A DNA stretch of 64,000 nucleotides, from positions 16,749 to 80,748 of the forward strand of contig CAKKSC010000007.1 of the NCBI GenBank assembly GCA_919902985.1. The letters run 5' to 3'. Shown here piece by piece: positions 6,168 through 52,960 of this stretch (position 1 is the stretch's first letter; every line of letters starts with the position of its first letter). Origin of the DNA: Desulfuromonadales bacterium (GTDB lineage: Bacteria; Desulfobacterota; JAENJC01). A model generated the notes under the pieces. The model had not been told where the DNA came from and did not search any database. It saw nothing but the letters and a program-made list of their open reading frames with translations. The position numbers and the translations under genes were made by a program.

Positions 6168-6252
6168 AAATCCCCCTTAATCCCCCTTTTCCAAAGGGGG
6201 AAAAGTTAGGTCCCCCTCTTTGGCAAAGAGGGGTTAGGGGAGATTTTTGGAG
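6168..6252. repeat. poly-C/poly-G tandem hairpin repeat, copy a
   Basis: CCCCCTTTtccAAAGGGGG followed by CCCCTCTTTggcAAAGAGGGG, then AGGGGAGATTTT. Intergenic between gspF and the exeA-like gene. Confidence 0.7.
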
Positions 6253-7178: not shown

Positions 7179-8093
7179 TTACGGCATCCGTTCTAATCTC
7201 TGCATACCCAGTTCACCGTTTTTATCCCCCAGCTTCCTGAGTCTCGAGAAATAATCCCTTGCCTGATCGTATCTCTTCTCCCTTTCATAAAGAAGGGCAA
7301 TGTTCAGCAGGGCCGACTGGCTGGTTCCGTCAATGGAGATGGCCTTCAGAAGAGAGTTTTCAGCCTCTATGTTTTCCCCTGTTTTAGCGGATACAATCGC
7401 CGAATTGACCAGGGCAGGGATATAATCCGATCTGATATTCAATGAATTCTTCAGATATCCGGCTGCCTCATCATGTCTGCCCATTTTTATCAGCAGGGCA
7501 GCGATCTTGTTTATAATCCTGTAGTTATCGGGCTCTATCTCAAGGGCCTTATTATACTCCGATGCTGCGCTTAACAGGTCATCACCTTTTTCATACCCCA
7601 CAGCCGCGTATATGTGCTGTTCTTTTGCCCCTGGGATGTGTTCCTCCTGAATGGGCACAGGATGTTGCATTTCTACCGGTATTTCCGGCTTTCGGGATTC
7701 AATGGCTTCTGTCGGATGTTTGGCAGGTAGTGCTTCAGGTTTTGTGAGAACGTAATGGGTCTTATTTTTAGCCGGTGCTGCGACAGGTTCTATTTTAGGC
7801 GTAGTTGTTGGAAGGGTGGGCTCCACCGGCATGGCAGTCTGATTGATGCCGTCCGCCCTGGTTTCCTGTGATGCAGTGACACTGTCTTTATTTAAGGCGT
7901 AGCGATCAGTCAGATAAATCGCAGCCAGGCCGAGGCCTGTAAATATTGAAATAATGGTTGCGAAGAGGAGTATCTTTCTGCGCCTGGATTCCTCCTGCTT
8001 TATGGCCGAGACGCTGCTGCTGAGGCCGGGATGAACATCCCTCTTGGGTTGCTGCTGTTTTACCCTGGATAATATGTCGGATAGTATGCTCAT
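7179..8093 (-). CDS. TPR-repeat membrane protein (MshN/GspB-like candidate)
   Basis: N-terminal cytoplasmic segment, one TM, Pro-rich linker, C-terminal TPR repeats. Sits next to the ExeA-like gene, as in MSHA loci (mshM-mshN), but on the opposite strand. Confidence 0.5.
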   Translation of the reverse strand: MSILSDILSRVKQQQPKRDVHPGLSSSVSAIKQEESRRRKILLFATIISIFTGLGLAAIYLTDRYALNKDSVTASQETRADGINQTAMPVEPTLPTTTPKIEPVAAPAKNKTHYVLTKPEALPAKHPTEAIESRKPEIPVEMQHPVPIQEEHIPGAKEQHIYAAVGYEKGDDLLSAASEYNKALEIEPDNYRIINKIAALLIKMGRHDEAAGYLKNSLNIRSDYIPALVNSAIVSAKTGENIEAENSLLKAISIDGTSQSALLNIALLYEREKRYDQARDYFSRLRKLGDKNGELGMQRLERMP

Positions 8094-10911: not shown

Positions 10912-10946
10912 TTGCTAAGGGTTGGGCGGTTTTGGGGTCAGCATTT

Positions 10947-10984
10947 CTCCCTCTTTGGAAAAGAGGGGGCAGGGGAGATTTTCA
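10947..10984. repeat. poly-C/poly-G hairpin repeat, copy b
   Basis: CTCCCTCTTTggaAAAGAGGGGG followed by CAGGGGAGATTTT. Lies between convergent genes. Confidence 0.65.
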
Positions 10985-13436: not shown

Positions 13437-15434
13437 ATGAAAGAAAACAAGCTTGCAGAAGTAGCTGTCCCGGCCCCTCTTGACAGGACATTCCATTATC
13501 TCCTCCCTGAAACCCTCGCTGACAAAGCCGCAGTGGGGATGAGGGTTACTGTCCCCTTTGGCAGGAGGTCTGTGACAGGGTATATCGTCGGTTTTCCTAA
13601 GGATGAAGAACCTGATGATTCCTTTGAGTTGAAGGAGATCAAGGATTTCCCTGATCCTGAACCTGTTTTCAGCCCGGATATGCTCAAGCTTTACAAGTGG
13701 ATTGCTGACTACTATATTGCACCGTTGGGCGAGGTAATCAGCACGGCACTGCCGCCGATTATGAAGAGGATAAAAAAGCAGGGGGCAGTGGTCAGGGATC
13801 AGGGGTCAGTAAGAGTCGAACTGACGGAAATGCAGAGAGAGGCCTTTTCAACCATCATTGCTGCTATGGATGCGAACGAGTTTGCCCCTTACCTGCTTCA
13901 TGGCGTAACCGGCAGTGGAAAGACGGAAGTGTACCTGAGGGTAATTGAAGAGTCTCTTGCGCGAGGGAAGGGGGCCATTGTCCTTGTCCCTGAGATATCC
14001 CTTACGCCTCAGCTCCTGGGACGTTTCAGGTCTCGATTTGGTGATAAGGTGGCCGCCCTTCACAGTGCCCTGTCTGACGGCGAGAGGTATTCGGAGTGGA
14101 TGCGGATAAAAAGGGGGGAGGCCAGGATTGTTGTCGGGGCCAGGTCTGCAATATTTGCGCCCATGGATGAACTTGGCGTTCTGGTGGTGGATGAGGAACA
14201 CGACCATTCATACAAGCAGGAAGAATCTCCGCGATATAACGCCCGAGACCTTGCCGTTGTCAGGGGAAAGATGGTTAAAGGGGTTGTCGTACTTGGCTCC
14301 GCTACTCCGTCAATGGAGTCTTATCATAATGCAAAGACAGGAAAGTTTAATTACCTGAACCTCCCCCACAGGGTTGAGGAGCGACCTATGCCCCAGATCG
14401 CAGTAGTTGATATGAAGGATACAGGCAAAAGGCGGATTTTTTCCAGTCAAATGACGGAATCCTTGAACAGGTGTATCGGGGAGAAAAAGCAGGCGCTACT
14501 CTTTTTGAACAGGAGGGGATTTTCCACGTTCCTGATGTGTTCCGACTGTGGCTTCACCTTTGGCTGTCCCAATTGCAGCATATCTCTGATATACCACCAG
14601 GGAGAAGGGTTGCTCAGGTGTCATTACTGTGACTATGTACAAAAGGCCTTTCCTGTGTGTCCTGCCTGCAAAGGTGTAAATGTGGGGCATTTGGGCCTTG
14701 GGACCGAAAAGGTTGAGGACGAGATAAAAAAGTCCTTCCCCGATTCCAGGGTTGCCAGGATGGACAGGGATACGGTTTCAAGGAAAGGCTCCCACGAACG
14801 AATCCTCAAGAGGATGGAAGAGGGGGATCTGGACATACTTATAGGGACCCAGATGGTGACAAAGGGACATGACTATCCAAATATTACTATGGTTGGCGTT
14901 ATCTCTGCAGATATATCCTTAAACCTGCCCGATTTTAGAGCGGCTGAAAGGACATTCCAGCTTCTTACTCAGGTGTCGGGCAGGGCTGGAAGAGGAGACG
15001 TCCTTGGGAAGGTGATAATCCAGACATTTAACCCCGATCACTATAGCATTGTTGCTGCCAGGAGCCATGATCTGGATGGTTTTTACAGGGAGGAGACGAC
15101 CTTCAGGAAGGAACTGGGGTATCCTCCTTTTTCCAGACTGATAAGCATAAGGCTCAGGGGGAACAGCGAGGCCAGAACTGCCTTAGCCGCTAATAATCTT
15201 GGCGAGCTTGCCAGGAATGAGATGAAGGCGTGGAAGGGTGTAACCATACTTGGCCCCAGCAAGGCCACTATATATAAGATCCGAGGGAAATACCGCTGGC
15301 ATATCCTGGTCAAAGGAAAAGACAGCGGCAAGCTTCATTCCTTTGTAAGGAAGCTGATTTCTCTGACGAGGGAGGGGTCGGGTTTCAGGGGGGTTGAGCT
15401 ACAGGTGGATGTAGACCCGTTGAACATGCTTTAG
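13437..15434 (+). CDS. priA: primosomal protein N' (replication restart helicase PriA)
   Basis: Walker A GVTGSGKTEVY, DEEHD box, and a Cys-rich zinc-binding region CSDCGFTFGCPNCS...CHYCDY. Confidence 0.9.
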   Translation: MKENKLAEVAVPAPLDRTFHYLLPETLADKAAVGMRVTVPFGRRSVTGYIVGFPKDEEPDDSFELKEIKDFPDPEPVFSPDMLKLYKWIADYYIAPLGEVISTALPPIMKRIKKQGAVVRDQGSVRVELTEMQREAFSTIIAAMDANEFAPYLLHGVTGSGKTEVYLRVIEESLARGKGAIVLVPEISLTPQLLGRFRSRFGDKVAALHSALSDGERYSEWMRIKRGEARIVVGARSAIFAPMDELGVLVVDEEHDHSYKQEESPRYNARDLAVVRGKMVKGVVVLGSATPSMESYHNAKTGKFNYLNLPHRVEERPMPQIAVVDMKDTGKRRIFSSQMTESLNRCIGEKKQALLFLNRRGFSTFLMCSDCGFTFGCPNCSISLIYHQGEGLLRCHYCDYVQKAFPVCPACKGVNVGHLGLGTEKVEDEIKKSFPDSRVARMDRDTVSRKGSHERILKRMEEGDLDILIGTQMVTKGHDYPNITMVGVISADISLNLPDFRAAERTFQLLTQVSGRAGRGDVLGKVIIQTFNPDHYSIVAARSHDLDGFYREETTFRKELGYPPFSRLISIRLRGNSEARTALAANNLGELARNEMKAWKGVTILGPSKATIYKIRGKYRWHILVKGKDSGKLHSFVRKLISLTREGSGFRGVELQVDVDPLNML

Positions 15435-19096: not shown

Positions 19097-19162
19097 CCAA
19101 GTTGCTTTCAAACATTAAATTAATGGAATTATAAAAAGCTTCCTTGACCCGGATGGGTATTA
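19097..19162. repeat. direct repeat unit 2 downstream of tRNA-Gly, upstream of rimP
   Basis: ATACCAAGTTGCTTTCAAACAT and ACCCGGATGGGTATTA. Ends 9 nt before the rimP ATG. Confidence 0.65.
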
Positions 19163-19170
19163 GGTTTTAT

Positions 19171-19632
19171 ATGGCTGAAGACGGTGTTGTTGAAAAGGTT
19201 GCTTCCCTTGCGGTTCCTGCCCTCGAAGAGATGGGAATGGAGCTTGTGTCTCTTGAGTACAGGAAAGAAGGGAGCGGCTGGGTCCTCAGGCTTTTTATAG
19301 ACAGGGACGGCGGAGTTACGCTTGACGACTGCGCTGATGCAAGCAGAGTGGTAGAGGCGTTCCTTGATGCTGCTGATATCATCCCTCATGAATACAGTCT
19401 TGAGGTTTCATCCCCCGGCCTTAACAGGCCGTTGAAAAAAGATGTCGATTTCAGGCGTTTTATCGGGAAGACTGCAAAGATCAAAACCTTTGAGATAATA
19501 GATGGCAGCAGGAACTTCAAGGGACGCATAGAGGGTTGTGAAGATAATATTGTACTTCTAAATGTTGACGGGACTATCCACCATATACCATTAAAAAAGA
19601 TCGCCAAGGCTAATATTGAATACGAGTTTTGA
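19171..19632 (+). CDS. rimP: ribosome maturation factor RimP
   Basis: DUF150/RimP fold immediately upstream of nusA. Start at MAEDGVV (ATG 19171), inside the longer ORF that the track starts at 19144. Confidence 0.85.
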   Translation: MAEDGVVEKVASLAVPALEEMGMELVSLEYRKEGSGWVLRLFIDRDGGVTLDDCADASRVVEAFLDAADIIPHEYSLEVSSPGLNRPLKKDVDFRRFIGKTAKIKTFEIIDGSRNFKGRIEGCEDNIVLLNVDGTIHHIPLKKIAKANIEYEF

Positions 19633-19647
19633 TGAATGGAGGTAAAA

Positions 19648-20778
19648 ATGATTCTTGAACTTAACCGGGTTTTGGAACAGGTAGGAAAGGACAAAGGGAT
19701 AAGCAAGGCAATACTTATTGAAGCAATTGAGTCGGCTGTGCTCATGGCAGCCAAGAAGAAGTATGGCGCAGACAAGGAGATTGAGGCCCACTTCAATGAA
19801 GAGCTGGGGGAGGTTGAGCTTTTCCAGTTCAAGACCGTAGTGGAGAATGTTGTTGACCCTGATAATGAAGTATCTCATCAAAAGGCTGTGAAAGAGGACC
19901 CGGGGGTCGAGGTCGGGGACAGCCTCGGAATGAAACTGGATGCATCAGGTTTTGGCAGGATCGCAGCACAGGCGGCTAAACAAATTATCGTCCAGAAGCT
20001 GAGGGACGCAGAGAGGGACAATATTTATAATGAGTTCAGGGAACGGAAGGGAGAGATCCTAAACGGTATAGTCAAGAGATTTGAGCACGGAGATATGATA
20101 GTAGATCTCGGTAAGACAGAGGCCGTTCTTTCCCAGAAGGAGCAGGTCCCAGGTGAAAATTACAGGCCTACTGAGAGGGTAAGAGCATATCTTGTTGACG
20201 TGAAAAAGACCTCAAAGGGCCCCAACATAATACTTTCAAGGACGCATCCAGGGATGGTTGCAAAGCTCTTTGAGCTTGAGGTCCCTGAGATTCATGAGGG
20301 GATCGTAAAGATAAAGAATGTTGTAAGGGAGCCCGGCAGCAGGGTCAAGATCGCGGTTGTAAGCGAGGACAGGGACATTGACCCGGTTGGAGCATGTGTC
20401 GGGATGAAGGGGAGCCGGGTGCAGGCTGTAGTCCAGGAGCTAAAGGGCGAGAAGATCGATATTGTGGAGTGGGTGGATGACCCTGCCAGATTTGTGTGCA
20501 ATGCCCTGTCTCCGGCCCAGATAGCGAAGGTTATAGTGCACGACTCTGAAAAGTCGATGGAGGTTATAGTCCCCGACAACCAGCTCTCTCTCGCTATCGG
20601 CAAGAGGGGTCAGAACGTAAGGCTTGGCGCAAAGCTGACCGGATGGAAGATAGATATATTCAGCGAGTCCAAGAAGTCCCTGGCTATGGAGGCTGAGAAG
20701 GCCTTATGGGAGATCCCCACTGTTACGGATGAGGAAGAGAATGTGGAAGGAATAGAAAGTCCAGAGGCTAATGAATAA
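19648..20778 (+). CDS. nusA: transcription termination/antitermination factor NusA
   Basis: S1 and KH domains (GMKGSRVQAV; GKRGQNVRLG). Start at ATG 19648, preceded by a GGAGGT RBS. Confidence 0.9.
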   Translation: MILELNRVLEQVGKDKGISKAILIEAIESAVLMAAKKKYGADKEIEAHFNEELGEVELFQFKTVVENVVDPDNEVSHQKAVKEDPGVEVGDSLGMKLDASGFGRIAAQAAKQIIVQKLRDAERDNIYNEFRERKGEILNGIVKRFEHGDMIVDLGKTEAVLSQKEQVPGENYRPTERVRAYLVDVKKTSKGPNIILSRTHPGMVAKLFELEVPEIHEGIVKIKNVVREPGSRVKIAVVSEDRDIDPVGACVGMKGSRVQAVVQELKGEKIDIVEWVDDPARFVCNALSPAQIAKVIVHDSEKSMEVIVPDNQLSLAIGKRGQNVRLGAKLTGWKIDIFSESKKSLAMEAEKALWEIPTVTDEEENVEGIESPEANE

Positions 20779-21469
20779 GAAAATGGTAAAGGCCGGCAGC
20801 GGATTCACTCCGGGGCGGCCGCGGGGTGGGGCGGCATCGGAGGAGCGAAGCGACGTACGGGTCTCCGATAAGATCAGTAAGATTAGAACATGTCTGGGTT
20901 GCAGGGTCTCTAAGGAAAAGGAAGAGCTTGTAAGGCTCATGAAATCTCCAGACGGGATTGTAGTTATAGACTATAAAAGAACCCTCCCCGGCAGAGGTGC
21001 TTATGTCTGCCCGACAGAGTCATGCATCAGGGATGCATTTTCAAGGAAGCAGATTACAAGGGTGTTTAAAGTTTCACAGATTGAGGGAGTGGATGAGTTC
21101 CTTGACCGCTTAAGGAAGCTGATTCTTTACAGGATTTCATCGCTCCTTTCCCTTGCAAGAAAGGCAGGGAAGGTTGTGGATGGAAGAGAGGCTGTCGAAA
21201 AGGGGATGGAGAAAGGGACTATAAAACTTCTCGTCTTTGCTGAAGACCTTTCTCCCCTGAGTTTGAAGGATATGAAAGATATATGTCTCAAGAGAGGAAT
21301 AATGTATTATACATACATCTCAAAGGACGGTATGGGTGGCCTTATAGGTAAGGGAGAGAGGGGTGCACTCGGCATAGCGGATGAATCTTTCTCATCCTTA
21401 TTGGGAAAGGAATTTGAAAGGTTTAAGAGTCTGGGAAGTATGGGCTCAGGGGGTGGAAAAAATGGCTAA
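20771..21469 (+). CDS. YlxR (DUF448)-L7Ae/YlxQ-like fusion protein
   Basis: N-terminal part carries the CLGCR...YVC zinc-ribbon motif of YlxR. C-terminal part has the L7Ae-like ARKAGKVV...[10 protein letters not shown] motif. One continuous ORF between nusA and infB. Confidence 0.6.
20801..20869 (+). repeat. about 70-nt conserved element, copy A (nusA-ylxR junction, overlaps the annotated ylxR 5' region)
   Basis: GGATTCACTCCGGGGCGGCCGCGGGGTGGGGCGGCATCGGAGGAGCGAAGCGACGTACGGGTCTCCGAT. About 80% identical to copy B. Confidence 0.6.
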
Positions 21470-23840
21470 GATAAGGATTCACGAACTTGCGAAGGAATTG
21501 GGCTTGGAAAACAAGGATGTAATAGCCAAGTGCAAACAGCTTGGATTTGGAGATAAGAGCCCTTCTCACGGCCTTGAAAACAGCGAGGCGGATAGTGTCA
21601 GGAAGGCCTTTAAGCCCCGCGAAGAGGCCTTGCCGGAAGAGATGCAGATTGTTGTAGAGAAAAAGGTCACCCTTGAGGACAGGGAGTTGTCTGTTGAAGA
21701 AAGGCGGGTAAAGTCCACTGTTATCAGGAGGAGGACTAAAGAGATAGAGGTCAAGCCCCAGGTTGTCGAGCCGGTTGAGCCTGTTAAGGTTGAAAAGGTC
21801 CCAGCAGTCCATGAGCTTCCATCCGAGCTGGCGGAGGTTGCCGTTCCTGTGATAGGGCCGCAAATTCCAGAAATGCAGCTGGTGCGTGTCATTGAAGAAG
21901 AGAAGCCTAGGGAAGAGGCCACGGGGAAGAAGAAGGATAAGAAGGAGATACTTAAGAAGGTGGAAAGCTTGGAGCTCAAGGAGCGTGTGTTTAAACCCGT
22001 GCCCGCTTTCAGGGGAAAGAGGCGAGGGGCAAAGGCTGCGCCTGCGGCAGGTTCCAAGAAGACTGAGATAACAGTTCCCAAGGCTATAAAAAGGGTCATT
22101 AAGGTCTCGGACGTGATACAGGTCGGGGAACTGGCCAAGAGGATGGGGATTAAGGCGGGTGAGGTTATAAAGAAGCTGTTCGGGCTTGGTATCATGGCCA
22201 CGATAAACCAATCAGTTGACATAGATGCTGCTACCCTTATCGCCCAGGACTTCGGGTACGAGGTCGAGAGGGTTGGAATGGAGATAGTGGAGGAAATGCT
22301 TGAAGAGACTGCGGATATAGCCGAGAATAAGGTTTTGAGGCCTCCCGTAGTTACAGTTATGGGTCATGTTGACCACGGTAAGACATCACTTCTGGACGCC
22401 ATAAAACAGACCGATGTGGCTGCAGGAGAGGCTGGGGGGATAACGCAGCATATAGGTGCCTATCACGTGAAACTCGATAAGGGAGACCTTGTGTTTCTGG
22501 ATACACCAGGGCATGAGGCGTTCACTGCCATGAGGGCGAGGGGTGCCCAGGTTACCGACTTTGTTGTCCTTGTGGTTGCTGCTGACGATGGGGTAATGCC
22601 CCAGACTGTGGAGGCCATAAACCATGCCAAGGCAGCCAACGTTCCGATCATTGTTGCGGTCAACAAGATAGACAAGCCTGGCGCCAACCCTGATAAGGTT
22701 AAACAGTCTTTATCCGAGCATGGACTTCAACCTGAGGGTTGGGGAGGGGACACCATCTTTGTGAATGTCTCTGCAAAACAGAGGACTGGGATCAAGGAAC
22801 TCCTTGAGATGATAATCCTTCAGGCAGAGGTAATGCAGCTTAAGGCCAACCCTGACAAGTTTGCCAAGGGAACTATAATAGAGGCAAGGCTTGACAAGGG
22901 TAGAGGGCCTGTGGCAACTGTCCTAGTTCAGGAGGGGACCCTTAAGGTAGGAGACCCCTTCGTTGCAGGGGTCCACTACGGAAGGGTCAGGGCCATGCTT
23001 GACGACAAAGGGGCAAAGGTTCTGGAGGCAGGCCCATCAATGCCGGTGGAGGTGCAGGGCCTTCCTGGAGTGCCTCAGGCTGGAGAGAGGTTCGTAGTCG
23101 TCTCTGATGAGAAAAAGGCAAAGGAGATAGGAACATACAGGCAGATGAAGCAGAGGGAGACTGAACTTTCCAAGAGCAGCAAGGTCTCTCTTGAGGACCT
23201 CTACAATAAGATAAAAGATGGAGAGGTAAAAGAACTGGGGATCATCATCAAGGCCGATGTTCATGGTTCCGTAGAAGCATTGACCGAGTCACTCCAGAAG
23301 CTCTCGACCGACGCTATAAAACTGAAGGTGCTTCACGGTTCCGTTGGGGCCATAACAGAGACCGACGTGCTTCTGGCTGCTGCTTCCAACGCCATAATAA
23401 TAGGTTTCCATGTCCGCCCTGATGTCAAGGTGCAGGCGTTGGCAGATGAAGAAGGGGTGGATGTAAGGCTTTACAGCATTATCTATGAGGTCACGGAGGA
23501 TGTGAAGAAGGCCATGGAGGGCCTCCTTGCACCGACCATCAAGGAGGTAGTCCTTGGAAGGGCTGAGATCAGGGAGATATTCAGCGTTCCAAAGATTGGG
23601 AACATCGGCGGCTGCTTTGTGACGGATGGAAAGATAACGAGAGGCTCCATGATAAGGCTTATAAGGGACGGGATAGTGATCCATGACGGCAAGCTGGCCT
23701 CCTTGAGAAGGTTCAAGGACGATGTTAAAGAGGTGCAGTCCGGGTATGAATGCGGTATCGGCATAGAGAACTATAACGACATCAAGACCGGTGATGTGAT
23801 TGAGGCTTATATACACGAAAAGATAGCAGCAAAATTATAG
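21462..23840 (+). CDS. infB: translation initiation factor IF-2
   Basis: GTP-binding domain [25 protein letters not shown]. Start at [13 protein letters not shown] (ATG 21462), after a GGGGGTGGA RBS. Confidence 0.95.
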
Positions 23841-23907
23841 TGGACAGTGGCCGGTGATCGGTGATCAGTTGATGCCGACCACTGACGTCTGACCACTGAC
23901 CACTGAA
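23841..23907. repeat. heptamer-array inverted pair (GTGGNCN x4 / CTGACCA x4) directly after the infB stop
   Basis: (GTGGACA)(GTGGCCG)(GTGATCG)(GTGATCA)...(CCGACCA)(CTGACGT)(CTGACCA)(CTGACCA). The arms are imperfectly complementary. Confidence 0.7.
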
Positions 23908-26627: not shown

Positions 26628-26897
26628 ATGGCAATAACGACTGAGAAAAAGAGAGAATTGATAGAATCGTATAAGACCCATGACGGGGATACCGGCTCTG
26701 CTGATGTCCAGATAGCGATCTTAAGTGAAAGGATCGGCTATCTGACTGAGCACTTCAAGACCCATGCAAAGGACCACCACTCCCGCAGGGGACTCCTTAA
26801 ATTGGTTAGCCAGAGAAGGAGGCTTCTCGATTACCTGAAAAGGAAAAACCAGGCAAGGTATGAAGGACTTATTTCAAGGCTTGGATTGAGAAAATAA
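26628..26897 (+). CDS. rpsO: 30S ribosomal protein S15
   Basis: 89 aa with typical S15 sequence ([32 protein letters not shown]). Confidence 0.95.
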
Positions 26898-27026
26898 AGA
26901 CTATTCACGCAAAGACGCAAAGAGCGCAAAGATAAATAGAAATGGACTAAATCCTTTCTTGGCGTACTGGCGCCTTTGCGAGCAGAATATGGTTTTTGAG
27001 TTGAATAATAATATAAGGTCCGCAAA

Positions 27027-27096
27027 GGATTCAATCCGGGCTGACCGCGGGGTACGGGGACATCGGAGGAGAAGAGCGACGCACGTGTCCCCGATC
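27027..27096 (+). repeat. about 70-nt conserved element, copy B (rpsO-pnp leader)
   Basis: GGATTCAATCCGGGCTGACCGCGGGGTACGGGGACATCGGAGGAGAAGAGCGACGCACGTGTCCCCGAT. Contains an 8-bp stem CGGGGACA/TGTCCCCG. Confidence 0.6.
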
Positions 27097-27136
27097 AAAA
27101 TAAATACTGGGAAACTATCCAGGAAAGTGGGAGAAC

Positions 27137-29224
27137 ATGGTAAATAGAGTTGAGGTTGAGCTAAGCGGTAAGCCCCTGTCGATAGAGACAGGGAAGATGG
27201 CTAAACAGGCAGACGGATCAGTTATCGTCAGGTATGGCGATACAATGGTAATGGTCACAGCCGTGGCAGCAAAGGCGCCGAGGGAGGGAATAGACTTTTT
27301 CCCACTGACGGTCGACTACCTTGAGAGGACCTATTCTGCGGGTAAGATACCTGGGGGGTTCTTTAAGAGAGAGGGAAGGCCTACTGAAAAGGAGGTACTG
27401 ACATCAAGGTTCATAGATAGGCCATTAAGACCGCTGTTCCCAGAAGGGTTCGCGTGCGAGACACAGATAATTGCCACTGTCCTTTCTTCAGACCTGGAGA
27501 ATAACTCAGACGTTCTTGCAATACTCGGAGCGTCTGCAGCAATAGAAGTGTCGGACATACCTTTTAACGGTCCCATTGCCGGAGTAAGGGTTGCAAGGGT
27601 AAAGGGCAAGCTCGTATGCAATCCCACATTTGCTGAGATAGCGGAGAGTGATATCGAACTGATCGTGGCAGGCTCCAGGGATGCCGTAGTAATGGTGGAG
27701 GGTGGAGCAAACTTTGCATCAGAGGAAGACCTTCTTTCAGCCATACTATTTGCCCATAAGGAGATGCAGGTACTGTTGGACATACAGGATGAACTTCGCG
27801 CCAAAGTAGGAAAGGGCAAAAGAGAGGTTGTTCTTCCCCATGTGGATGAATGCATGGTTCAGAAGATAAAAGAGATCGCGACCAGCCGCATTAAAGAGGC
27901 AGTGACTATATCCAAAAAGCAGGACAGGAAGGGCAGGATTTCTGAGATTGGGAAAGAGGTACTGGAAACCCTGGCTGCCGAATTTCCTGACAGGGAAAAA
28001 CAGATCAAGGCTGTACTTGGAGACATTGAATATCATGCAGTAAGGCAGTTGGCGGTAAAGAACAGGGTCAGGATAGACGGCAGGGGCCTGAAGGACATAA
28101 GACCCATTGCCTGCGAAGTGGGGGTTTTGCCGAGGACACACGGTTCAGGTTTATTCACAAGGGGAGAGACCCAGGCACTCGTTGTTGCAACCCTTGGGAC
28201 ATCAGATGATGAACAGAGGATCGACGCAATTGAGGGAGAGAGGACAAAAGCCTTTATGCTCCACTATAATTTTCCACCGTATTCAACCGGAGAGACGAAG
28301 CCGATGAGGAGTCCGGGAAGAAGAGAGGTTGGTCACGGAGCGCTGGCTGAGAGGGCACTGGCAAAGGTACTTCCCTCTAAGGAAGAGTTCCCATACACCA
28401 TAAGGATTGTCTCAGACATCCTTGAGTCAAACGGATCCTCCTCCATGGCCTCTGTTTGCGGAGGAAGCCTTTCTCTTATGGATGCCGGAGTTCCTGTTAA
28501 GGATTCAGTAGCAGGTATTGCCATGGGCCTTATAAAGGAAGGGGATGAATTCGCAGTCCTCTCAGACATCTTAGGAGATGAGGACCACTTGGGGGACATG
28601 GATTTCAAGGTGACAGGCAGCAAGAACGGCATCACTGCCCTTCAAATGGACATCAAGATAGGTGGAGTCAGCAGGGAGGTGCTCTTCATGGCCCTTGAAC
28701 AGGCCAGGGAGGGAAGGCTCCACATATTGTCAGAGATGGCGAAGTGCATGACCCAGCCAAGGACAAACATTTCCATATATGCGCCGCGGATCATAACTAT
28801 GCAGGTAAAACCTGATAAGGTAAGAGAAGTCATAGGTCCGGGCGGAAAGGTCATAAAGGGCATTATAGAGCAGACAGGTGTAAAGATAGATATAGAGGAC
28901 AGCGGTAAGATAAATATCGCATCCTCCGACTACAAGGCAATTGAGAAGGCCATTGAGATAATAAAGAGCATAACCCAGGAGGTGGAGGTAGGAAAGATAT
29001 ACCTCGGGACAGTCAGGAAGATCATGGACTTCGGGGCATTCGTAGAGGTGCTCCCTGGGACTGACGGACTGGTGCATATATCCCAGCTGGCCCACGAAAG
29101 GGTCCAGAACGTGGCAGATGTCCTCAAGGAAGGGGACAAGGTCATGGTAAAGGTGCTTGAGGTTGACAAGCAGGGTAAGATAAGGCTAAGCAGGAAAGAT
29201 GCATTAGGTCACAGCGAAGGGTAG
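27137..29224 (+). CDS. pnp: polyribonucleotide nucleotidyltransferase (PNPase)
   Basis: Two RNase PH domains, KH and S1 domains. 695 aa. Conserved rpsO-pnp synteny. Confidence 0.95.
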
Positions 29225-29313: not shown

Positions 29314-29386
29314 TATCCCATCCCCACCTCAATCCTCCCCTTGAAGGCGAGGAAGTCTCCCTCTCCTTCAGGGAGAGGGTGGGTTC
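29314..29386. repeat. poly-C/poly-G tandem hairpin repeat, copy c (nearly identical to copy e)
   Basis: TATCCCATCCCCACCTCAATCCTCCCCTTGAAGGCGAGGAA...CTCCCTCTCCTTCAGGGAGAGGGTGGG. Upstream of the M16 peptidase gene. Confidence 0.7.
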
Positions 29387-38365: not shown

Positions 38366-38456
38366 GTATCCCATCCCCACCTTAATCCTCCCCTTGAAGG
38401 GGAGGAAATAAGCATTCTCCCTCTCCCTCAGGGAGAGGGTTGGGGTGAGGGTGGAT
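38366..38456. repeat. poly-C/poly-G tandem hairpin repeat, copy e
   Basis: The first 40 nt match copy c with 2 mismatches. Two hairpins. Lies between pilW and pilX. Confidence 0.7.
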
Positions 38457-45542: not shown

Positions 45543-45797
45543 ATGAAGCAGAATATAAACAACGTTAGGAAGTTGAGAGAGGCCAAGCTGATGAGCAAGG
45601 CCGAATTGGCAAGAAAGGCCGGGATATCAGTCCTGACAGTGGACAGAATAGAGAAGGGTCACCCATGCAGGCTGGACACGAAAAGGAAGGTGGTCATTGC
45701 CCTGGGTCTCAGGGTTCCTGAGGCGGACAAGGTTTTTAAGAGCAGCCAGAAATCAGAAGACAGGGGTCAGGGGTCAAGGGTCAGGGGTCAGAAGTAA
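45543..45797 (+). CDS. XRE-family helix-turn-helix transcriptional regulator
   Basis: HTH LMSKAELARKAGISVLTVDRIEKG. The C-terminal tail GQGSRVRGQK is encoded by a GGGGTCA heptamer array. Confidence 0.6.
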   Translation: MKQNINNVRKLREAKLMSKAELARKAGISVLTVDRIEKGHPCRLDTKRKVVIALGLRVPEADKVFKSSQKSEDRGQGSRVRGQK

Positions 45798-47524: not shown

Positions 47525-48115
47525 ATGGCCATAAAAATAACAGCCGAATCACTGATAAAGCTTCCTCCAAAGCAGAAGGTATATATTCTGGTTGGTGTGC
47601 TTGCGCTCATTGCCGGGTTATACTGGTATCTGATTTATAAACCCAAATCAGCTGAACTTGTGGAGATTAATGTCAGGCAGGAGAAGTTACAGGCAGAGTT
47701 GAATGAAAGCTTGGCAATTGCTGCCGATCTTCCACGGTTCAAGGCTGAGGTGGCAAGACTCAACGATGAATTAACAAAGGCCCTTCTGGAGCTTCCCGAT
47801 AAAAAGGAGATACCTTCGCTGCTGACAAATATCTCAAAGCTTGGAATCGAATCAGGTCTTGAATTTATTCGCTTTAAGCCGATGAATGAGGTCCCTTCAG
47901 GATTTTATGCAAAGGTCCCTGTGGAGATAAGTCTGAGGGGATCATATCACGAGGTGGCCACTTTTTTTGATAAGGTCTCCAAGCTTTCAAGGATAGTCAA
48001 TATAACGGACATAAACGTGAGCGGCGCTAAGGAAGAGGGAGGGAAAGTTATACTTACCACACCCTGCCTTGCAACAACTTACAGGTTTATTGAGGGTGAA
48101 AGTGTTAAAAAATAG
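47525..48115 (+). CDS. pilO: type IV pilus assembly protein PilO
   Basis: TM segment plus coiled-coil. Gene order M-N-O-P-Q. Confidence 0.8.
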   Translation: MAIKITAESLIKLPPKQKVYILVGVLALIAGLYWYLIYKPKSAELVEINVRQEKLQAELNESLAIAADLPRFKAEVARLNDELTKALLELPDKKEIPSLLTNISKLGIESGLEFIRFKPMNEVPSGFYAKVPVEISLRGSYHEVATFFDKVSKLSRIVNITDINVSGAKEEGGKVILTTPCLATTYRFIEGESVKK

Positions 48116-48124
48116 TTTAAAAAA

Positions 48125-48195
48125 TAGTGGTCAGTTGTCAGTGGTCAGTGGTCAGATTTGTCTAATGCTTATCTCTTACTGCTTATTGCTTACTG
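48125..48195. repeat. heptamer arrays (AGTGGTC x4, then CTTACTG x4) spanning the pilO-pilP junction
   Basis: The second array encodes the PilP signal peptide. The arrays are complementary in RNA only if G-U pairs are allowed. Confidence 0.6.
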
Positions 48196-48668
48196 TTGTT
48201 ACGGGATGCAACAAAGAAGAGGTTGCGCCAGCCCAGGTTGCGCCGGTCAAAAAGGTTGTTGCGCCTGTGCAGACCTCAGTAACTACCGAAAAAATGCCTG
48301 AGTATGTCTATAACCCGGCAGGCAAGAGAGATCCATTTAAATCTTTTATAGAAGTAGTTACAAGTAAAAGGGAGCGTGCAGTTGCTCCGATAACACCTCT
48401 TCAGAGTTATGACCTGGCGGCCCTCAGGCTTGTGGGGATCATGCTGCTGCCCGGGAAGAGGGTAGCAATAATAGAGGACCCCACAGGTAAAGGCTACCAC
48501 GTTAAAGTAGGGACATCAATAGGAATGAACGATGGGGTAGTAGTTGAGATTTTAAAGGATGAGTTGATCGTTGAAGAGAAATACCTGGATGAAACTGCAC
48601 AAACAAAGGCAAGAAAGGTTTCAGTAAAGATCCCGAAAGAAGAGGATAGAGGAGGAGAAGGCCGATGA
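48165..48668 (+). CDS. pilP: type IV pilus assembly lipoprotein PilP
   Basis: Signal peptide with lipobox LLLTVVTGC at ATG 48165. C-terminal beta-domain. Overlaps pilQ. Confidence 0.7.
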   Translation: MLISYCLLLTVVTGCNKEEVAPAQVAPVKKVVAPVQTSVTTEKMPEYVYNPAGKRDPFKSFIEVVTSKRERAVAPITPLQSYDLAALRLVGIMLLPGKRVAIIEDPTGKGYHVKVGTSIGMNDGVVVEILKDELIVEEKYLDETAQTKARKVSVKIPKEEDRGGEGR

Positions 48669-51640
48669 GAATCGATGCTATAGTAAATAAAACCAACATG
48701 TTATCGCTCTTGAGTCTGATTATCTTATTGTCGGCCTGTTCGCCAAAAGTCGCGCAGGTAAGGCCGGAAGAACAGGCAAAAGCCATATCCATTAGCAGTC
48801 TGGAGATTGGAAAGAGTGATGACAGGTCTATCCTGACTATTAAGGCAACTGAATCATTGCAGGGAAATTACACGGTCATTAAGGTGTCAGAACCGCCCAA
48901 GGTGTTTATAGAGATGCCAACTGCGGATGTGGGAAATTTCGAAGGCACGATAGATGCTGTTAATGGAGTCATCTCAAAGGTAGTGACCTCAAGGCGTGAT
49001 GTTTCCGGCGCCATGATAGAGATTAGCCTTTTGTCCTTAGTAGAGCATGAGGTCAAGGCAGATGGAAATACGCTGGAGATATATTTGGGAGCGCCTCATG
49101 GAGAAGGAGCCCCATCTGAGAAAGTAGAAGAAGCCCCTATAGAAGAGAAAGCGGAGGCCGGCTCTACAACAGATAGTAAGGAGCAGTCACCCGCCGAAAT
49201 AGTTGTGGAGCCAAAGACAGAAGAAAAGGCTGAAGCTCCCCAGAAGGCCTTAAAAGTGAAGGCAGTTGAGATTAAAAAGGAGGGAAAATTTACAAGGGCA
49301 GAAATAATTACTGACGGCGAAGTTTCGGATTATAATGTCTTTGACTTAAAGTCCCCTAACAGGGTTGTTGTTGATGTCAGGAATGCCAGGGAGATATTGA
49401 CAAAAAGGGATATTAAGGCTGTCTCGCCTCACATCAATGGCGCCAGGCTTGGGCGGCATGACGGGCAGGTGAGGGTCGTATTTGACTATAAGGGAGGTGT
49501 CAAGCCTTATGAGGTAGTTAAGGAGAGTGACAGGATCTCCATTATATTTGGAAAGAAGCCAACAACTGTAGTGGCAAAAGTCGAGAAGGCAGCCGTAAAG
49601 GAAGAAGCCCCGAAGATAGAGGAAAAGGTAGAGGTAGAGAAAAAGTCAGAGACGACTACAGTAGAACCGGAGCCTGCTGCCACTGCTGAGGCCCCAAAAA
49701 AGGCTTTAAAAATAACAGATGTGAAGATTCAGAAGTCAGGCAAGTTCACAAGTGCAGAGATAATAACAGATGGAGACCCGTCCACATACAAGGTCTATGA
49801 CCTTAAGTCGCCGGACAGGGTTATCGTTGACATCATGAATGCAAGGGACATTTCTGCAAAAAAGAAGATCAAGGCAGTTTCCCCTCATATCAAGGGCGCA
49901 AGACTCGGGCGTCATGACGGACAGGTGAGGGTTGTATTTGACTATAAGGGGAGCATTGAGCCTTATTTTGTATTAAAAGGGGCTGACAGGATCACGATAT
50001 TGTTTGGAAAGAAGCCAGAAACTACTGAAGCAAAAGTCGAGAAAGCAGCAAAGGAAGAGGCACCGAAAATAGAAGAAAAGGCAGAGGAGGCGCCTGCTGC
50101 AGTCGAGGCAACGCCTGAGGTTAAGGAAGAGGTAAAGACAGAGACCAAGGCGGAGATCCAGAAAGAAGAGTCAAAGGTAGAAGAGGCTGCAAGCGCCAAG
50201 CCTGTTGAGGTTCCTGCCGAAGTAAAACACGCGGTAGAAAAGGAAGAGATAAAGACAGAGGAAAAAACCGAAGCAAAAGAGAAGGCTGTCGCCGCTCCTT
50301 CAGTCGAAGCGGCGGTCGAGGAGAAGACCGAGCCGGAACCAGAAAAGAAAACTGCTGCCGAGAGTGCATCTGAGGAGATGGCAAAGGTTTATAATGGACA
50401 GAAGGTCACCCTGGAGTTCAAGGATGCTGACATAAAAAATATATTCAGGATTATTGCAGAGGTAAGCGGCTACAATATGATAATTGACAGCGCGGTGGTC
50501 GGAAAGGTCACCATCAGGCTTGTAAACGTCCCATGGGACCAGGCACTTGATATATTGCTGGAGACAAATAACCTGGGGATGAAAAAGGTGGGAAATGTAA
50601 TCAGGGTGCTGCCAGCCGCAATAGTGAAAAAGGAGGAAGAGGAGAAGCTGGCTTCAAAGAAGGCTATGGAAAAGCTTGAAGATATGGTGACTAAAGTCAT
50701 ACCTGTCAGCTATGCAACGGCATCCGATATCTCTTCCAAGTTGAAGGGCGTTATGACGGACAGGGGCACTGCCATTGTTGATGATAGGACAAATACCATA
50801 ATCCTGAAGGATATACAGAAAAGTGTTGATGAAGCGGAAAAGCTTGTGATGGGTTTGGACGAACCGACAAAGCAGATTATTATAGAGGCCAGGATTGTGA
50901 CGGCAAACACAAACTTCGCGAGAGACCTCGGAGTTCAATGGGGCGCTGGCTATGCGGCTGATGCCGCACATGGAAACCCGACAGGTTATTACTTTCCGAA
51001 TTCATACAATGTATCCGGTGGGGGAGGCGGTTCCTTCGCCCTCAATCCACCAGCATCAGGTGGCGTCGGCGCATCCTCGGGCGGGGGAGGTGTTGTGGGT
51101 ATCAATTTCGGGTCGATTAATAATACCTTGAACTTGGACCTTCGGTTGAGCGCGCTTGAGAGTCAGGGTTGGGGAAAGGTTGTCTCCAGCCCGAAGATAA
51201 TAACCCTTGACAATAAGCTGGCATCTATCTCGCAGGGAATTTCCATACCATTTGAGACCACATCTGCTTCAGGCACACAAACGACTTTCGTGGATGCAAA
51301 CCTCAATCTGACTGTAACGCCGCACGTGACTAACGATGACAGGATAAGTATGAAGATAAAGGTCAGCAAGAACAGGCCGGATCTTGCCTTTAAAGGGGCC
51401 AGCGGAGCACCGTCGATTGATAAGAAGGAAGCAACTACGGAGATACTTGTTAAGGATGGAGATACTACCGTTATAGGCGGTATCTATGAGATTGATAAGG
51501 GTGAGAGCGAAACATTTACGCCATTCCTTGGCAGGATACCTATCCTCGGATGGTTATTTAAATCCAAGAAAAAAACTGAAACAAAGACAGAACTACTAAT
51601 ATTTATAACCCCCAAAATAGCACGCGATATAGCAGGATAA
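48665..51640 (+). CDS. pilQ: type IV pilus secretin PilQ (two AMIN domains)
   Basis: Two highly similar AMIN domains. Low-complexity E/K-rich linkers. Secretin C-terminus IGGIYEIDKGESETFTPFLGRIPILGWLFKSKKK...ELLIFITPKI. Confidence 0.9.
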   Translation: MRIDAIVNKTNMLSLLSLIILLSACSPKVAQVRPEEQAKAISISSLEIGKSDDRSILTIKATESLQGNYTVIKVSEPPKVFIEMPTADVGNFEGTIDAVNGVISKVVTSRRDVSGAMIEISLLSLVEHEVKADGNTLEIYLGAPHGEGAPSEKVEEAPIEEKAEAGSTTDSKEQSPAEIVVEPKTEEKAEAPQKALKVKAVEIKKEGKFTRAEIITDGEVSDYNVFDLKSPNRVVVDVRNAREILTKRDIKAVSPHINGARLGRHDGQVRVVFDYKGGVKPYEVVKESDRISIIFGKKPTTVVAKVEKAAVKEEAPKIEEKVEVEKKSETTTVEPEPAATAEAPKKALKITDVKIQKSGKFTSAEIITDGDPSTYKVYDLKSPDRVIVDIMNARDISAKKKIKAVSPHIKGARLGRHDGQVRVVFDYKGSIEPYFVLKGADRITILFGKKPETTEAKVEKAAKEEAPKIEEKAEEAPAAVEATPEVKEEVKTETKAEIQKEESKVEEAASAKPVEVPAEVKHAVEKEEIKTEEKTEAKEKAVAAPSVEAAVEEKTEPEPEKKTAAESASEEMAKVYNGQKVTLEFKDADIKNIFRIIAEVSGYNMIIDSAVVGKVTIRLVNVPWDQALDILLETNNLGMKKVGNVIRVLPAAIVKKEEEEKLASKKAMEKLEDMVTKVIPVSYATASDISSKLKGVMTDRGTAIVDDRTNTIILKDIQKSVDEAEKLVMGLDEPTKQIIIEARIVTANTNFARDLGVQWGAGYAADAAHGNPTGYYFPNSYNVSGGGGGSFALNPPASGGVGASSGGGGVVGINFGSINNTLNLDLRLSALESQGWGKVVSSPKIITLDNKLASISQGISIPFETTSASGTQTTFVDANLNLTVTPHVTNDDRISMKIKVSKNRPDLAFKGASGAPSIDKKEATTEILVKDGDTTVIGGIYEIDKGESETFTPFLGRIPILGWLFKSKKKTETKTELLIFITPKIARDIAG

Positions 51641-51694: not shown

Positions 51695-52960
51695 ATGAGC
51701 ACTCTGAGATATCTGACTGCTGGCGAGTCGCACGGTAAAGGACTATCAGCTTTAATGGAGGGTATTCCGGCTAACCTTGAATTAACAGCTGAGTATATTA
51801 ACAATGAACTTGCCCGCCGACAGATGGGTTATGGACGCGGTGGAAGGATGAAGATCGAGACCGATACCGCGGAGATACTTTCAGGTATAAGGTTTGGCAG
51901 GACACTTGGCTCACCTATAGCCCTGTTCATTGAAAACAGAGATTGGGAAAACTGGCAGGAAGTGATGAGTTCACCCCCCCCTCAATCCCCCCCTTTAATA
52001 AAAGGGGGGGTAGAGGGAGTTGTCACCCGCCCCCGCCCAGGCCATGCAGACCTTTCTGGCGCAATCAAGTACAACCAAAAGGACATCAGGAACATATTAG
52101 AGAGGTCGAGTGCGCGGGAGACGGCTGCAAGGGTAGCAGTAGGTTCTGTTGCAAAAAAACTTCTTGAGGAGTTCGGCATAAGGGTTTTCAGCTGGGTTAC
52201 AGAGATAGGAGGACAGCAGTGGTCAGAGGTCAGTGGTCGGAGCTCAGTCTATTACTCGCCGCTCCTCGCTTCTCGCTCCTCGCTTTCTGAGTTATACGAG
52301 AAGGCTGAAAAATCCGAGGTTAGATGTCCAGATGCGGCAGCAACAGAGGCCATTAAGAAAAGGATAGACGAGGCCAGAAACAGCGGAGATTCTCTCGGCG
52401 GAATATTTGAGATTGTCGTAAGCGGCGCTCCGGTTGGCCTTGGGAGTCACGTCCAGTTTGACAGGAAGCTGAATGCGAGGCTTTCCATGGCCCTTATGAG
52501 CATACAGGCTATCAAAGGGGTAGAGTTTGGACTTGGATTTGAGGCGGCGACACGGCACGGCTCTGAGGTGCATGATGAGATATGCTTCAGGGGTCAGGGG
52601 TCAGGGGTCAAGGGTCAGGAATTCAAACCACCGACCACTGGGTTTTACAGGAAGACCAACAATGCGGGTGGCATAGAGGGCGGGATGTCGAATGGTGAGG
52701 ATATAGTCATCAGGGCGGCAATGAAACCGATACCTACTCTGTATAAACCGCTTCGCTCAGTGGACATAGTAACAAAAGAGGTCTTTGAGGCCACTGTCGA
52801 GAGGTCGGATATATGTGCCGTCCCAGCCGCTTCAGTTGTGGGCGAAGCCGTTGTAGCTTTCGAGATCGCCAATGCCGTGCTTGATAAATTCGCCGGCGAC
52901 TCGATGGAAGAGATGATGAAGAATTACAACAGCTATATGGAATATGTGAAGGGGTTTTAG
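51695..52960 (+). CDS. aroC: chorismate synthase (carrying three in-frame repeat insertions)
   Basis: Motifs [33 protein letters not shown]. 421 aa versus about 360-390 for typical AroC. Confidence 0.9.
51972..52036. repeat. poly-C/poly-G hairpin repeat, copy g, in frame inside aroC
   Basis: CCCCCCCCTCAATCCCCCCCTTTaataAAAGGGGGGGTAGAGGGAG. Translated as [19 protein letters not shown] immediately before the conserved RPGHAD motif. Confidence 0.7.
52216..52288. repeat. heptamer arrays (CAGTGGT x3, then TCCTCGC x4) in frame inside aroC
   Basis: Translated as [26 protein letters not shown]. There is about 20 aa extra here relative to canonical AroC. Confidence 0.6.
52588..52619. repeat. (GGGGTCA)x4 array in frame inside aroC
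   Basis: CAGGGGTCAGGGGTCAGGGGTCAAGGGTCAGG translated as GQGSGVKGQ. The same unit occurs at 45761. Confidence 0.65.

Follow-up and report, generated by a model that had tools for sequence, protein, structure and literature searches.

Introduction

Repetitive extragenic palindromic (REP) sequences are imperfect palindromes of 20–40 nt that begin with a conserved tetranucleotide of the GTAG type and are associated with a RAYT gene, and REP/BIME sequences protect or uncouple upstream genes in enterobacteria. Rickettsia palindromic elements (RPEs) are short dispersed stem-loop repeats that lie either between genes or as in-frame insertions, where they add a peptide to otherwise normal proteins, and structured extragenic repeats in general cluster and nest (PMC10969869). 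Here we analyze a 64,000-nt stretch from a Desulfuromonadales bacterium (assembly GCA_919902985.1, contig CAKKSC010000007.1), referred to as the window, that contains two similar structured elements: copy A, at the 5′ end of the ylxR–ylxQ gene behind nusA, and copy B, between rpsO and pnp. In Escherichia coli, the corresponding metY-nusA-infB and rpsO-pnp operons have leaders that are processed by RNase III. The original prediction, made from the window alone, left a choice between a cis-acting RNA shared by the two leaders and a small dispersed repeat. We find a dispersed repeat with a conserved single-strand fold, whereas the proposed tie to the two leaders did not hold. With a probability of roughly 0.7, copies A and B are two members of an undescribed family of ~81-nt structured interspersed repeats that is not dedicated to the nusA and pnp operons.

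Results

The window contains two copies of an 81-nt repeat

Positions 20789–20869 (copy A) and 27015–27095 (copy B), both on the + strand, form an ungapped direct repeat of 81 nt with 78% identity, so that the reported similarity is real and a little longer than first described. A 27-nt degenerate pattern built from the common 5′ part matched only these two places in the window, with 0.00 matches expected (100 dinucleotide shuffles). A covariance model applied to the 64 kb with filters off gave 93.4 bits for copy A, 92.9 bits for copy B and 9.4 bits for the next match, and found no third copy in the window. The same two copies are present in ten independent assemblies of the window species and thus are not an assembly artefact. 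When read in the frame of copy A, copy B runs into a stop codon (GGA TTC AAT CCG GGC TGA), indicating that the similarity exists at the nucleotide level and ruling out a shared peptide-coding segment as its cause.

Homologous copies occur at about ten unrelated loci

GTDB species genomes and JGI metagenomes were scanned with the most conserved block of the element, ATCGGAGGAGNNNAGCGACGNAC, and the flanks of each match were inspected; contigs or loci compared with the window are numbered L001–L055. Both of these large scans used one core pattern, and more divergent members were seen only within loci already fetched. Together with the covariance model, the pattern scans placed copies at about ten sites other than the window pair, on contigs of uncultured ‘Deltaproteobacteria’ or Thermodesulfobacteriota. 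Full-length homologues lie at the carA–orf218 junction (L008, L029), between the ammonium transporter gene amt and a gene for an ANTAR protein (L014), at thrS–infC (L018), upstream of a cox2-like gene as two tandem copies (L020), upstream of the gene for a 102-aa secreted protein (L024, L026), in the 5′ untranslated region (UTR) of nrdJ (L027), and at secE–nusG, again as two tandem copies (L030). The ylxR site itself was matched by the core scan in L001, L002, L009 and L025. Further copies came from the covariance model. They are decayed and antisense at tRNA-Gly–rimP (L025, L044, L009), a site that is empty in the window, and at tuf–rpmG (L055), and one in L053 is partial. A single metagenome-assembled genome (MAG) in GTDB, JAENJC01 (‘Deltaproteobacteria bacterium’), carries one copy at carA together with half a copy in ylxR and an antisense copy that has decayed. 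The carriers form a clade of uncultured bacteria from groundwater and sediment, with the label Deltaproteobacteria or Thermodesulfobacteriota.

The core returned no match in the viral contigs scanned, and a literature search for the core sequence was likewise negative. Rfam, searched both with gathering cut-offs and more permissively, gave no match on copy A or B even at E ≤ 10, nor on the window, the 15 loci with intact copies or the loci of the sister family described below, where only tRNAs and noise were returned. Eleven core-pattern matches (L004–L007, L010, L012, L013, L015–L017 and L021) were discarded as chance, the flanking helices being missing. Three of these, in Acidobacteriota MAGs (L004, L010, L012), are near-identical 130-nt stretches on different contigs and genomes, and probably belong to a repeated gene or insertion sequence (IS) element unrelated to the 81-nt repeat. 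At L027 (~7420–7560, minus strand), palindromes that resemble NrdR boxes (CCACAATATATTGTGG, ACACAATATAGGGT) lie upstream of the repeat copy preceding the class II ribonucleotide reductase gene, which places this copy in a primary 5′ UTR.

The family shares a covarying two-domain fold on the gene-sense strand

Twelve copies align nearly gap-free (alignment A3) and share one fold, in which a 7-bp helix (P1) encloses a 4-bp hairpin (P1a) and is followed by a conserved G-rich linker, GCGGGGU, and a second 7-bp helix (P2) that closes an invariant 25-nt loop (AUCGGAGGAGCNNAGCGACGNACGG). This fold pairs 91% of the cells in A3, compared with 31–45% in shifted registers, and seven pairs are changed on both sides (1/500 shuffles). 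P1, for example, appears as GGCUGGC/GCCAGCC, GGCCAAC/GUUGGCU or GGCCAUC/GAUGGC. In an alignment of 24 copies of the 3′ domain, which includes the sister family, P2 keeps its register while changing between GGGGGC/GCCCCC, GCUCC/GGAGC, GUUCC/GGAAC, GUUUC/GAAAC and GCGCC/GGCGC; in 18 cells, both sides differ (0/500 shuffles). P1, P1a and P2 were recovered independently by RNAalifold. Folding z-scores were −3 to −4 for intact copies, −2.0 for copy B and −0.7 for copy A; single-sequence folds of A and B gave z of −0.7 and −1.2, which are not significant, and the structure is visible only through the family alignment.

Sixteen G–U cells in A3 would be mismatches on the opposite strand. The fold therefore exists on the gene-sense strand only and points to RNA or one DNA strand, not to a duplex palindrome. 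No terminal inverted repeats were found: in nine copies, local alignment of the first 30 nt with the reverse complement of the last 30 nt was no better than in shuffles. An alternative pairing, AUCGG/CCGAU, was rejected in favor of P2 on covariation. In L050 and L026, RNAfold offers another helix between the G-rich linker and the 3′ C-tract; the G-tracts pair with C/U-tracts in either register. Readings of the element as a hammerhead, a T-loop or tRNA-like structure, a boxA/nut site or a G-quadruplex were dropped by eye, with key positions variable or absent.

Mapped from A3 onto copy A, the 5′ domain (20791–20820, + strand) consists of P1 (20791–20797/20814–20820) around P1a (20800–20803/20809–20812), and the 3′ domain (20829–20867, + strand) of P2 (20829–20835/20861–20867) closing the conserved loop at 20836–20860 (AUCGGAGGAGCGAAGCGACGUACGG). 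In copy B, the 5′ domain (27017–27046, + strand) contains P1 (27017–27023/27040–27046) and P1a (27027–27030/27034–27037, GGAU/AUCC), and the 3′ domain (27055–27093, + strand) contains P2 (27055–27061/27087–27093) with 7/7 pairs and the loop at 27062–27086. The 8-bp stem previously drawn for copy B is thus genuine, being the family helix P2 plus one A–U pair peculiar to this copy.

Copies come and go at orthologous sites

The nusA–pnp region was fetched from relatives chosen by identity of ribosomal protein S15 and searched with the covariance model. The rpsO–pnp site is filled in the window species, in L042 (S15 98% identical) and in L050–L052 (85%, Thermodesulfobacteriota MAG), and cleanly empty in L044 and L045/L047 (94%) and in L048/L049 (89%); in L041 and L043 it is taken by a different inverted-repeat element of ~130 nt. 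Where the site is empty, GAGTTGAAAAAT directly abuts GATCAAAATAAAC; where it is filled, GAGTTGAATAAT is followed by the insert (AATATAAGG...CCCC) and then by GATCAAAATAAAT, and the remaining leader is conserved in both cases. The states of the ylxR site form a graded series. A full copy is present in the window and L002; in L001, L044 and L046 such a copy has another one, a variant, nested within it; L009 has only the 3′ half, L003 a decayed copy, L041, L045 and L047 a relic, and L048 no insert (VSREGTVRTCIGC). At secE–nusG, the two good copies of L030 contrast with relatives with 88% identical NusG, which retain unrecognizable relics (L053, L054) or a 13-nt spacer (L055). This mixture of gained, lost, nested, tandem and decayed copies is the signature of an interspersed repeat. 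A conserved role at both leaders, as had been proposed, is contradicted by close relatives in which A or B is absent, a relic or replaced by another repeat. The extra copies at unrelated loci and this absence in relatives are the two observations that the original prediction had named as refuting a leader-specific element, and by both of them that reading fails.

Copy A lies in frame in the ylxR–ylxQ gene

Both window copies belong to a single rimP-nusA-ylxR-infB-rbfA-truB-rpsO-pnp string. By Pfam, its genes are rimP (19144–19632), nusA (19636–20778, + strand), a fusion of ylxR with an L7Ae-like domain, infB, a gene for a DUF503 protein, rbfA, a gene for a DHH-family protein, truB, rpsO and pnp, and a tRNA-Gly gene lies upstream. 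The fusion open reading frame (ORF; 20771–21469, + strand) encodes 232 aa, with the YlxR domain at aa 39–115 and the L7Ae/YlxQ-like domain at aa 122–209. Among solved structures, the closest relatives of the C-terminal domain are BH2414 (3on1) and B. subtilis YlxQ (3v7q), the latter being the closest. The fusion of YlxR (DUF448) and a YlxQ/L7Ae-like domain in one ORF has the same architecture in all of the more than 30 homologues found; in Bacillus, YlxR and YlxQ are encoded by two separate genes.

Copy A occupies codons 7–33 of this ORF, in frame. It lies after the start ATG, which overlaps the stop codon of nusA, and ahead of a conserved motif, RTCLGC, at the start of the YlxR domain; its location within the ylxR ORF had been correctly anticipated. 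The accompanying suggestion that the ORF begins downstream of copy A is not borne out. There is no in-frame ATG, GTG or TTG between position 20783 and the RTCLGC motif, and the nusA-overlapping start is conserved in relatives as MNK, MSK or MDK. For a downstream start only ATC and ATT codons would be on offer, at least 27 nt from GGAGGAG, and this candidate was rejected. The distance from the start to RTCLGC is 132, 126, 204, 90 or 69 nt among relatives, always a multiple of three, and every insertion or deletion in this 5′ stretch preserves the frame. An AlphaFold model (21-sequence alignment) gave predicted local distance difference test (pLDDT) values around 90 for the YlxR and L7Ae domains and below 50 for residues 1–3, 7–10 and 18–32, in keeping with a disordered tail able to take a 27-codon insert. 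Copy A is most likely translated, as part of a predicted disordered N-terminal tail of ~30 residues of YlxR–YlxQ. Its fold is partly degraded (6/7 pairs kept in P1, 5/7 in P2), and the loss of pairs from both helices suggests that it is eroding. Directly 3′ of copy A (20864–20884), the window shows a 9-nt tandem duplication (TAAGATCAG TAAGATTAG) that yields DKISKIRTC; in relatives, TAAGATT is present only once (DKIRTC).

Copy B lies in the rpsO–pnp spacer

The spacer between rpsO (S15; 26628–26897, + strand, Pfam) and pnp (polynucleotide phosphorylase; 27137–29224, + strand, Pfam) is 239 nt long and contains copy B, which ends at a distance of 41 nt from the pnp ATG. At the pnp site, the copies in the window, L042 and L050 are 89–94% identical, cluster together and share a private P1 variant, GGUCGGC/GCUGACC, which identifies them as orthologous. 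Two defects of copy B, a C·U mismatch in P1 and C60A in the loop hairpin, have no counterpart in its orthologues. The pnp-proximal leader (27096–27136, + strand), delimited by comparison of filled and empty sites, contains AUCAAAAUAAA, a small hairpin, CUGG..CCAG (27107–27122), and the Shine-Dalgarno sequence GGGAG, and is conserved with or without the repeat. A promoter and terminator scan of the spacer found nothing on the + strand.

Further structured sequences share this spacer. Just 3′ of rpsO (26905–26995), a hairpin made of repeated words (CACGCAAAGACGCAAAGAGCGCAAAG ... GGCGCCTTTGCGAGC) is kept in relatives with or without copy B; it may serve as terminator or attenuator for rpsO or else belong to a further family of repeats, and a simple terminator scan of the region gave no match. 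The ~130-nt inverted-repeat element of L041 (10380–10520) and L043 (CCGCAGAGATGCGGAGA...TCTCTGCGCCTCCGCGG) occupies exactly the position of copy B, and L050 carries a CACAGAGACAC.../...CTCTGTGACCTCTGTGG element (2880–2960) upstream of its repeat copy. The rpsO–pnp spacer is a hot spot for small repeats.

A sister family inserts in coding regions

A second set of repeats, which we call type 2, has the same 25-nt loop and P2, which here follow another 5′ part, made up of GAGCCGUCAGC and a hairpin. Type 2 was found on five AT-rich contigs, one of them from an alphaproteobacterial MAG: L019 (754–824), L028 (5193–5273), L011 (5914–5974), L022 and L023. Three of these copies are inserted in frame, in QueA, in a GNAT acetyltransferase and in the tail of a DEAD-box helicase, and all three are read in the ..SEERSD.. 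frame that is also used in copy A. The core may resemble a widespread ‘GAGGAGCGAAGCGACG’ repeat yielding ..EERSDE.. peptides.

Other repeats in the window

Several further repeats were noticed in the window. Arrays of a 7-nt unit (GGGGTCA or GTGGTCA) occur at eight sites (13767–13815, 23839–23868, 45735–45797, 48113–48161, 52218–52247, 52569–52631, 58440–58488 and 58995–59057), one of them directly after infB. A dispersed repeat at 29314–29383 and 38367–38443 (TATCCCATCCCCACCT.AATCCTCCCCTTGAAGG.GAGGAA ... TCTCCCTCTCC.TCAGGGAGAGGGT.GG; 93–95% identical) recurs more weakly at 51967–52007; one copy lies just 3′ of pnp, and a reverse-complement-like copy is found in L014, upstream of the 81-nt repeat copy there. 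A hairpin-forming repeat of 37 nt (TCCCCCTCTTTGGCAAAGAGGGGTTAGGGGAGATTTT) links 6211–6247 with 10946–10982 at 89% identity. Finally, a 300-nt direct repeat (49229–49528 and 49685–49984, 72% identity) lies within a 991-aa ORF (48665–51640) and presumably reflects an internal repeat of a protein domain.

Discussion

The copies at about ten loci, the covarying fold and the patchwork of filled, empty and decayed sites all argue for an interspersed repeat family that is probably mobile. The combination of no terminal inverted repeats, strand-specific G–U pairing and covarying helices suggests that the family probably spread through a folded single strand, either RNA or single-stranded DNA, rather than by cut-and-paste transposition, with movement provided by a trans-acting enzyme or by recombination. 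Copy A would then be an old insertion in the 5′ end of ylxR–ylxQ whose fold is eroding, and whose tolerance is probably explained by its length of 27 codons, its open frame and the disordered tail that it encodes. Copy B would be a largely intact passenger in the 5′ UTR of pnp that descends from an ancestor which the window has in common with L042 and L050. Our best guess for its effect on the host is that a stable and possibly protein-bound RNA structure before the ribosome-binding site might modestly influence mRNA stability or translation. We do not regard the element as a regulator dedicated to the nusA and pnp operons.

Several observations weigh against this reading. Between the window and L050, the element at the pnp site is 89% identical, which exceeds the identity of rpsO (79%), pnp (80%), the downstream spacer (73%) and the essentially unalignable upstream spacer (47%). 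Moreover, two compensatory changes in P1 separate the orthologous copies of L024 and L026. Pnp-site conservation and these compensatory changes point to selection in situ, or to homogenization between copies, rather than to a purely neutral passenger, and a cis-acting RNA role for some copies may be kept alive by them. At every one of the nine loci where intact copies (above 80 bits) lie, the element is in sense orientation, and in 9/10 intact copies its 3′ end lies 14–41 nt before the next start codon, just ahead of a strong Shine-Dalgarno sequence; both features fit a cis-acting role. They could also result from an insertion preference for the A/T-rich stretch before ribosome-binding sites combined with co-orientation of genes and replication. 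The copies seen number two in the 64-kb window and three in a single MAG of GTDB, and several of them are grouped in the nusA–pnp super-operon, so that the element may be a low-copy, locus-biased one. As for a mechanism of movement, no transposase or other mobilizing gene was found by a Pfam scan, including Y1/HUH domains, that covered ten small ORFs of the window. As possible target-site duplications, some copies are bordered by direct repeats that are short and rich in A/T (ATTAAA in L050, AATTAA in L018, ATAAA in L020 and L030) and others by none, and chance matches are expected in A/T-rich flanks.

Among the alternatives, the one that survives best, although unlikely, proposes a kink-turn (K-turn) regulon. 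The invariant loop would be a K-turn hairpin bound by the YlxQ domain of YlxR–YlxQ, giving autoregulation together with co-regulation of pnp and, in relatives, of infC, nusG, nrdJ and others, with the repeat recruiting genes to the circuit. The loop can be drawn as a hairpin with pairs C52–G69 and G53–C68, a bulge of G54-A55-G56, sheared G57·A67 and A58·G66 pairs, pairs G59–C65 and C60–G64, and an NNA triloop. Its 3b·3n pair is G–C, as in the U4 K-turn, which folds only upon protein binding. Position 60 was left free in the search pattern, yet is C in 22/24 copies and U once and pairs with G64, and in L055 the two GA dinucleotides are deleted together from both strands, such that the helix stays continuous. 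The proposed binding protein would be encoded at copy A, in an ORF whose C-terminal domain is closest to B. subtilis YlxQ; for YlxQ, a homologue of L7Ae, binding to K-turns has been reported (Baird et al. 2012, as cited in PMC5061560). The sense orientation of intact copies, their short distance from start codons and the apparent constraint on the pnp-site copy would also fit. However, the proposed C-stem has only 2 bp, whose positions could not vary because the search pattern fixed them, and the other K-turn positions are invariant in part for the same reason, so that covariation says nothing about them. RNAalifold prefers a different inner pairing, whose 73/74 partners nonetheless vary without compensation. 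Furthermore, relatives that lack the element at pnp or ylxR keep the same fusion protein, many copies decay, copy 1 of L030 has intact helices with the whole core lost, and the sister family sits within coding regions. Recognition of the loop by YlxQ as a K-turn is an attractive but unlikely reading. A wider version, in which a mobile K-turn module inserted before ribosome-binding sites or in ylxR–ylxQ wires pnp, infC, nusG, nrdJ, carA and its own mRNA into a post-transcriptional circuit centered on nusA–infB and built by a selfish element, appears just as improbable. Were the K-turn reading true, it would provide a natural mobile element that distributes a protein-binding RNA switch, and a concrete RNA target for bacterial YlxQ proteins, the cellular ligands of which are, to our knowledge, poorly known.

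A role as a host-selected module that stabilizes mRNA, insulates it or aids translation is also rather improbable. Here the stable two-hairpin structure, with A/U-rich single-stranded flanks and placed directly before the ribosome-binding site, would protect or uncouple the downstream cistron in the manner of REP/BIME sequences, and mobility would be incidental. The proximity to start codons, the uniform sense orientation, the A/U-rich flanks, the compensatory changes that preserve the structure, including those between L024 and L026, and the better conservation of the element than of the flanking spacer at pnp are all in its favor. Against it stands the frequent loss or decay at orthologous sites with no visible replacement, and the bias in position and orientation could just as well stem from insertion preference and co-orientation of genes and replication.

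Far less probable is a leader-specific cis-acting RNA, that is, an RNase III processing site or autoregulatory site common to nusA–infB and rpsO–pnp. Both window copies do lie in one nusA–pnp gene string with no third copy in the 64 kb, relatives carry further copies in the same operon, and the pnp copy is orthologous across two diverged lineages. The element nevertheless also occurs at carA, amt, thrS–infC, secE–nusG, nrdJ, the cox2-like gene and other loci, close relatives that keep the rest of the leader lack A or B, and copy A is inside a coding sequence. RNase III cleaves long duplexes, whereas the helices here are short (7 + 4 bp and 7 bp), unlike the double-stranded hairpin of about two turns that is characteristic of leaders processed by RNase III. 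Resemblance by chance, G-rich sequence of low complexity and a peptide-coding segment common to both copies can practically be dismissed, as zero matches are expected at random, more than 20 homologous copies have covarying helices and copy B runs into a stop when read like copy A; the high G+C content of the element and the non-significant folds of A and B alone speak in their favor.

For annotation, reading A and B as members of a repeat family removes the tempting inference of a conserved regulatory RNA that links the nusA and pnp leaders, and explains the variable, odd N-terminus of YlxR–YlxQ in this clade as a translated repeat insertion. It also adds a non-palindromic, covariation-supported repeat family near ribosome-binding sites outside the usual model organisms, and its core recurs in the repeats that insert in frame on AT-rich contigs. 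Families of this type commonly give rise to false ‘riboswitch-like’ candidates and to protein tails peculiar to a lineage.

Comparison with known systems

The 81-nt repeat shares with RPEs its dispersal, a stable fold and in-frame insertion, as seen for copy A and its orthologues in ylxR (27 codons) and for type 2 in QueA, the GNAT acetyltransferase and the DEAD-box helicase. Unlike the RPEs, which measure ~150 bp, it is ~81 nt long and has a two-domain fold with an invariant 25-nt loop rather than a simple palindrome. Its hosts are Thermodesulfobacteriota-like MAGs and AT-rich contigs, including one alphaproteobacterial MAG, and the comparison with the ten RPE families was made by description, not by sequence. 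With REP/BIME, ERIC, BOX/RUP/SPRITE and Correia repeats it has in common an intergenic location, co-transcription with neighboring genes, hairpins, tandem or nested clusters and polymorphism between strains. It differs from REP/BIME in its 81-nt length, two different domains, unpaired 25-nt loop and the absence of a GTAG head, in lying mostly before the ribosome-binding site of the next gene instead of after stop codons, and in a strand-specific fold with G–U pairs; no RAYT gene was seen beside the repeat at the loci inspected, where no dedicated search was made. MITEs (miniature transposable elements with inverted repeats) resemble it in being small and non-coding by themselves, in their A/T-rich insertion sites, in truncated or decayed copies and in leaving operons unbroken, but the present element has neither terminal inverted repeats nor a target-site duplication that is clear, and a related IS element was not found, the transposase scan having covered the same ten ORFs.

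The likeness to K-turn RNAs, such as those of YlxQ/YbxF and of archaeal L7Ae autoregulation, lies in a core, CG-GAG-GA-GC...GC-GA-CG, that fits a 3-nt bulge with tandem G·A/A·G pairs and in the YlxQ-type domain of the ORF that contains copy A. The fit here is one of sequence pattern, with a 2-bp C-stem and an alternative pairing predicted. Finally, the two copies share their operon positions with the RNase III-processed rpsO-pnp and metY-nusA-infB leaders of E. coli, whereas they have no long duplex, are neither specific to nor conserved at these leaders, and in one case form part of a coding sequence.

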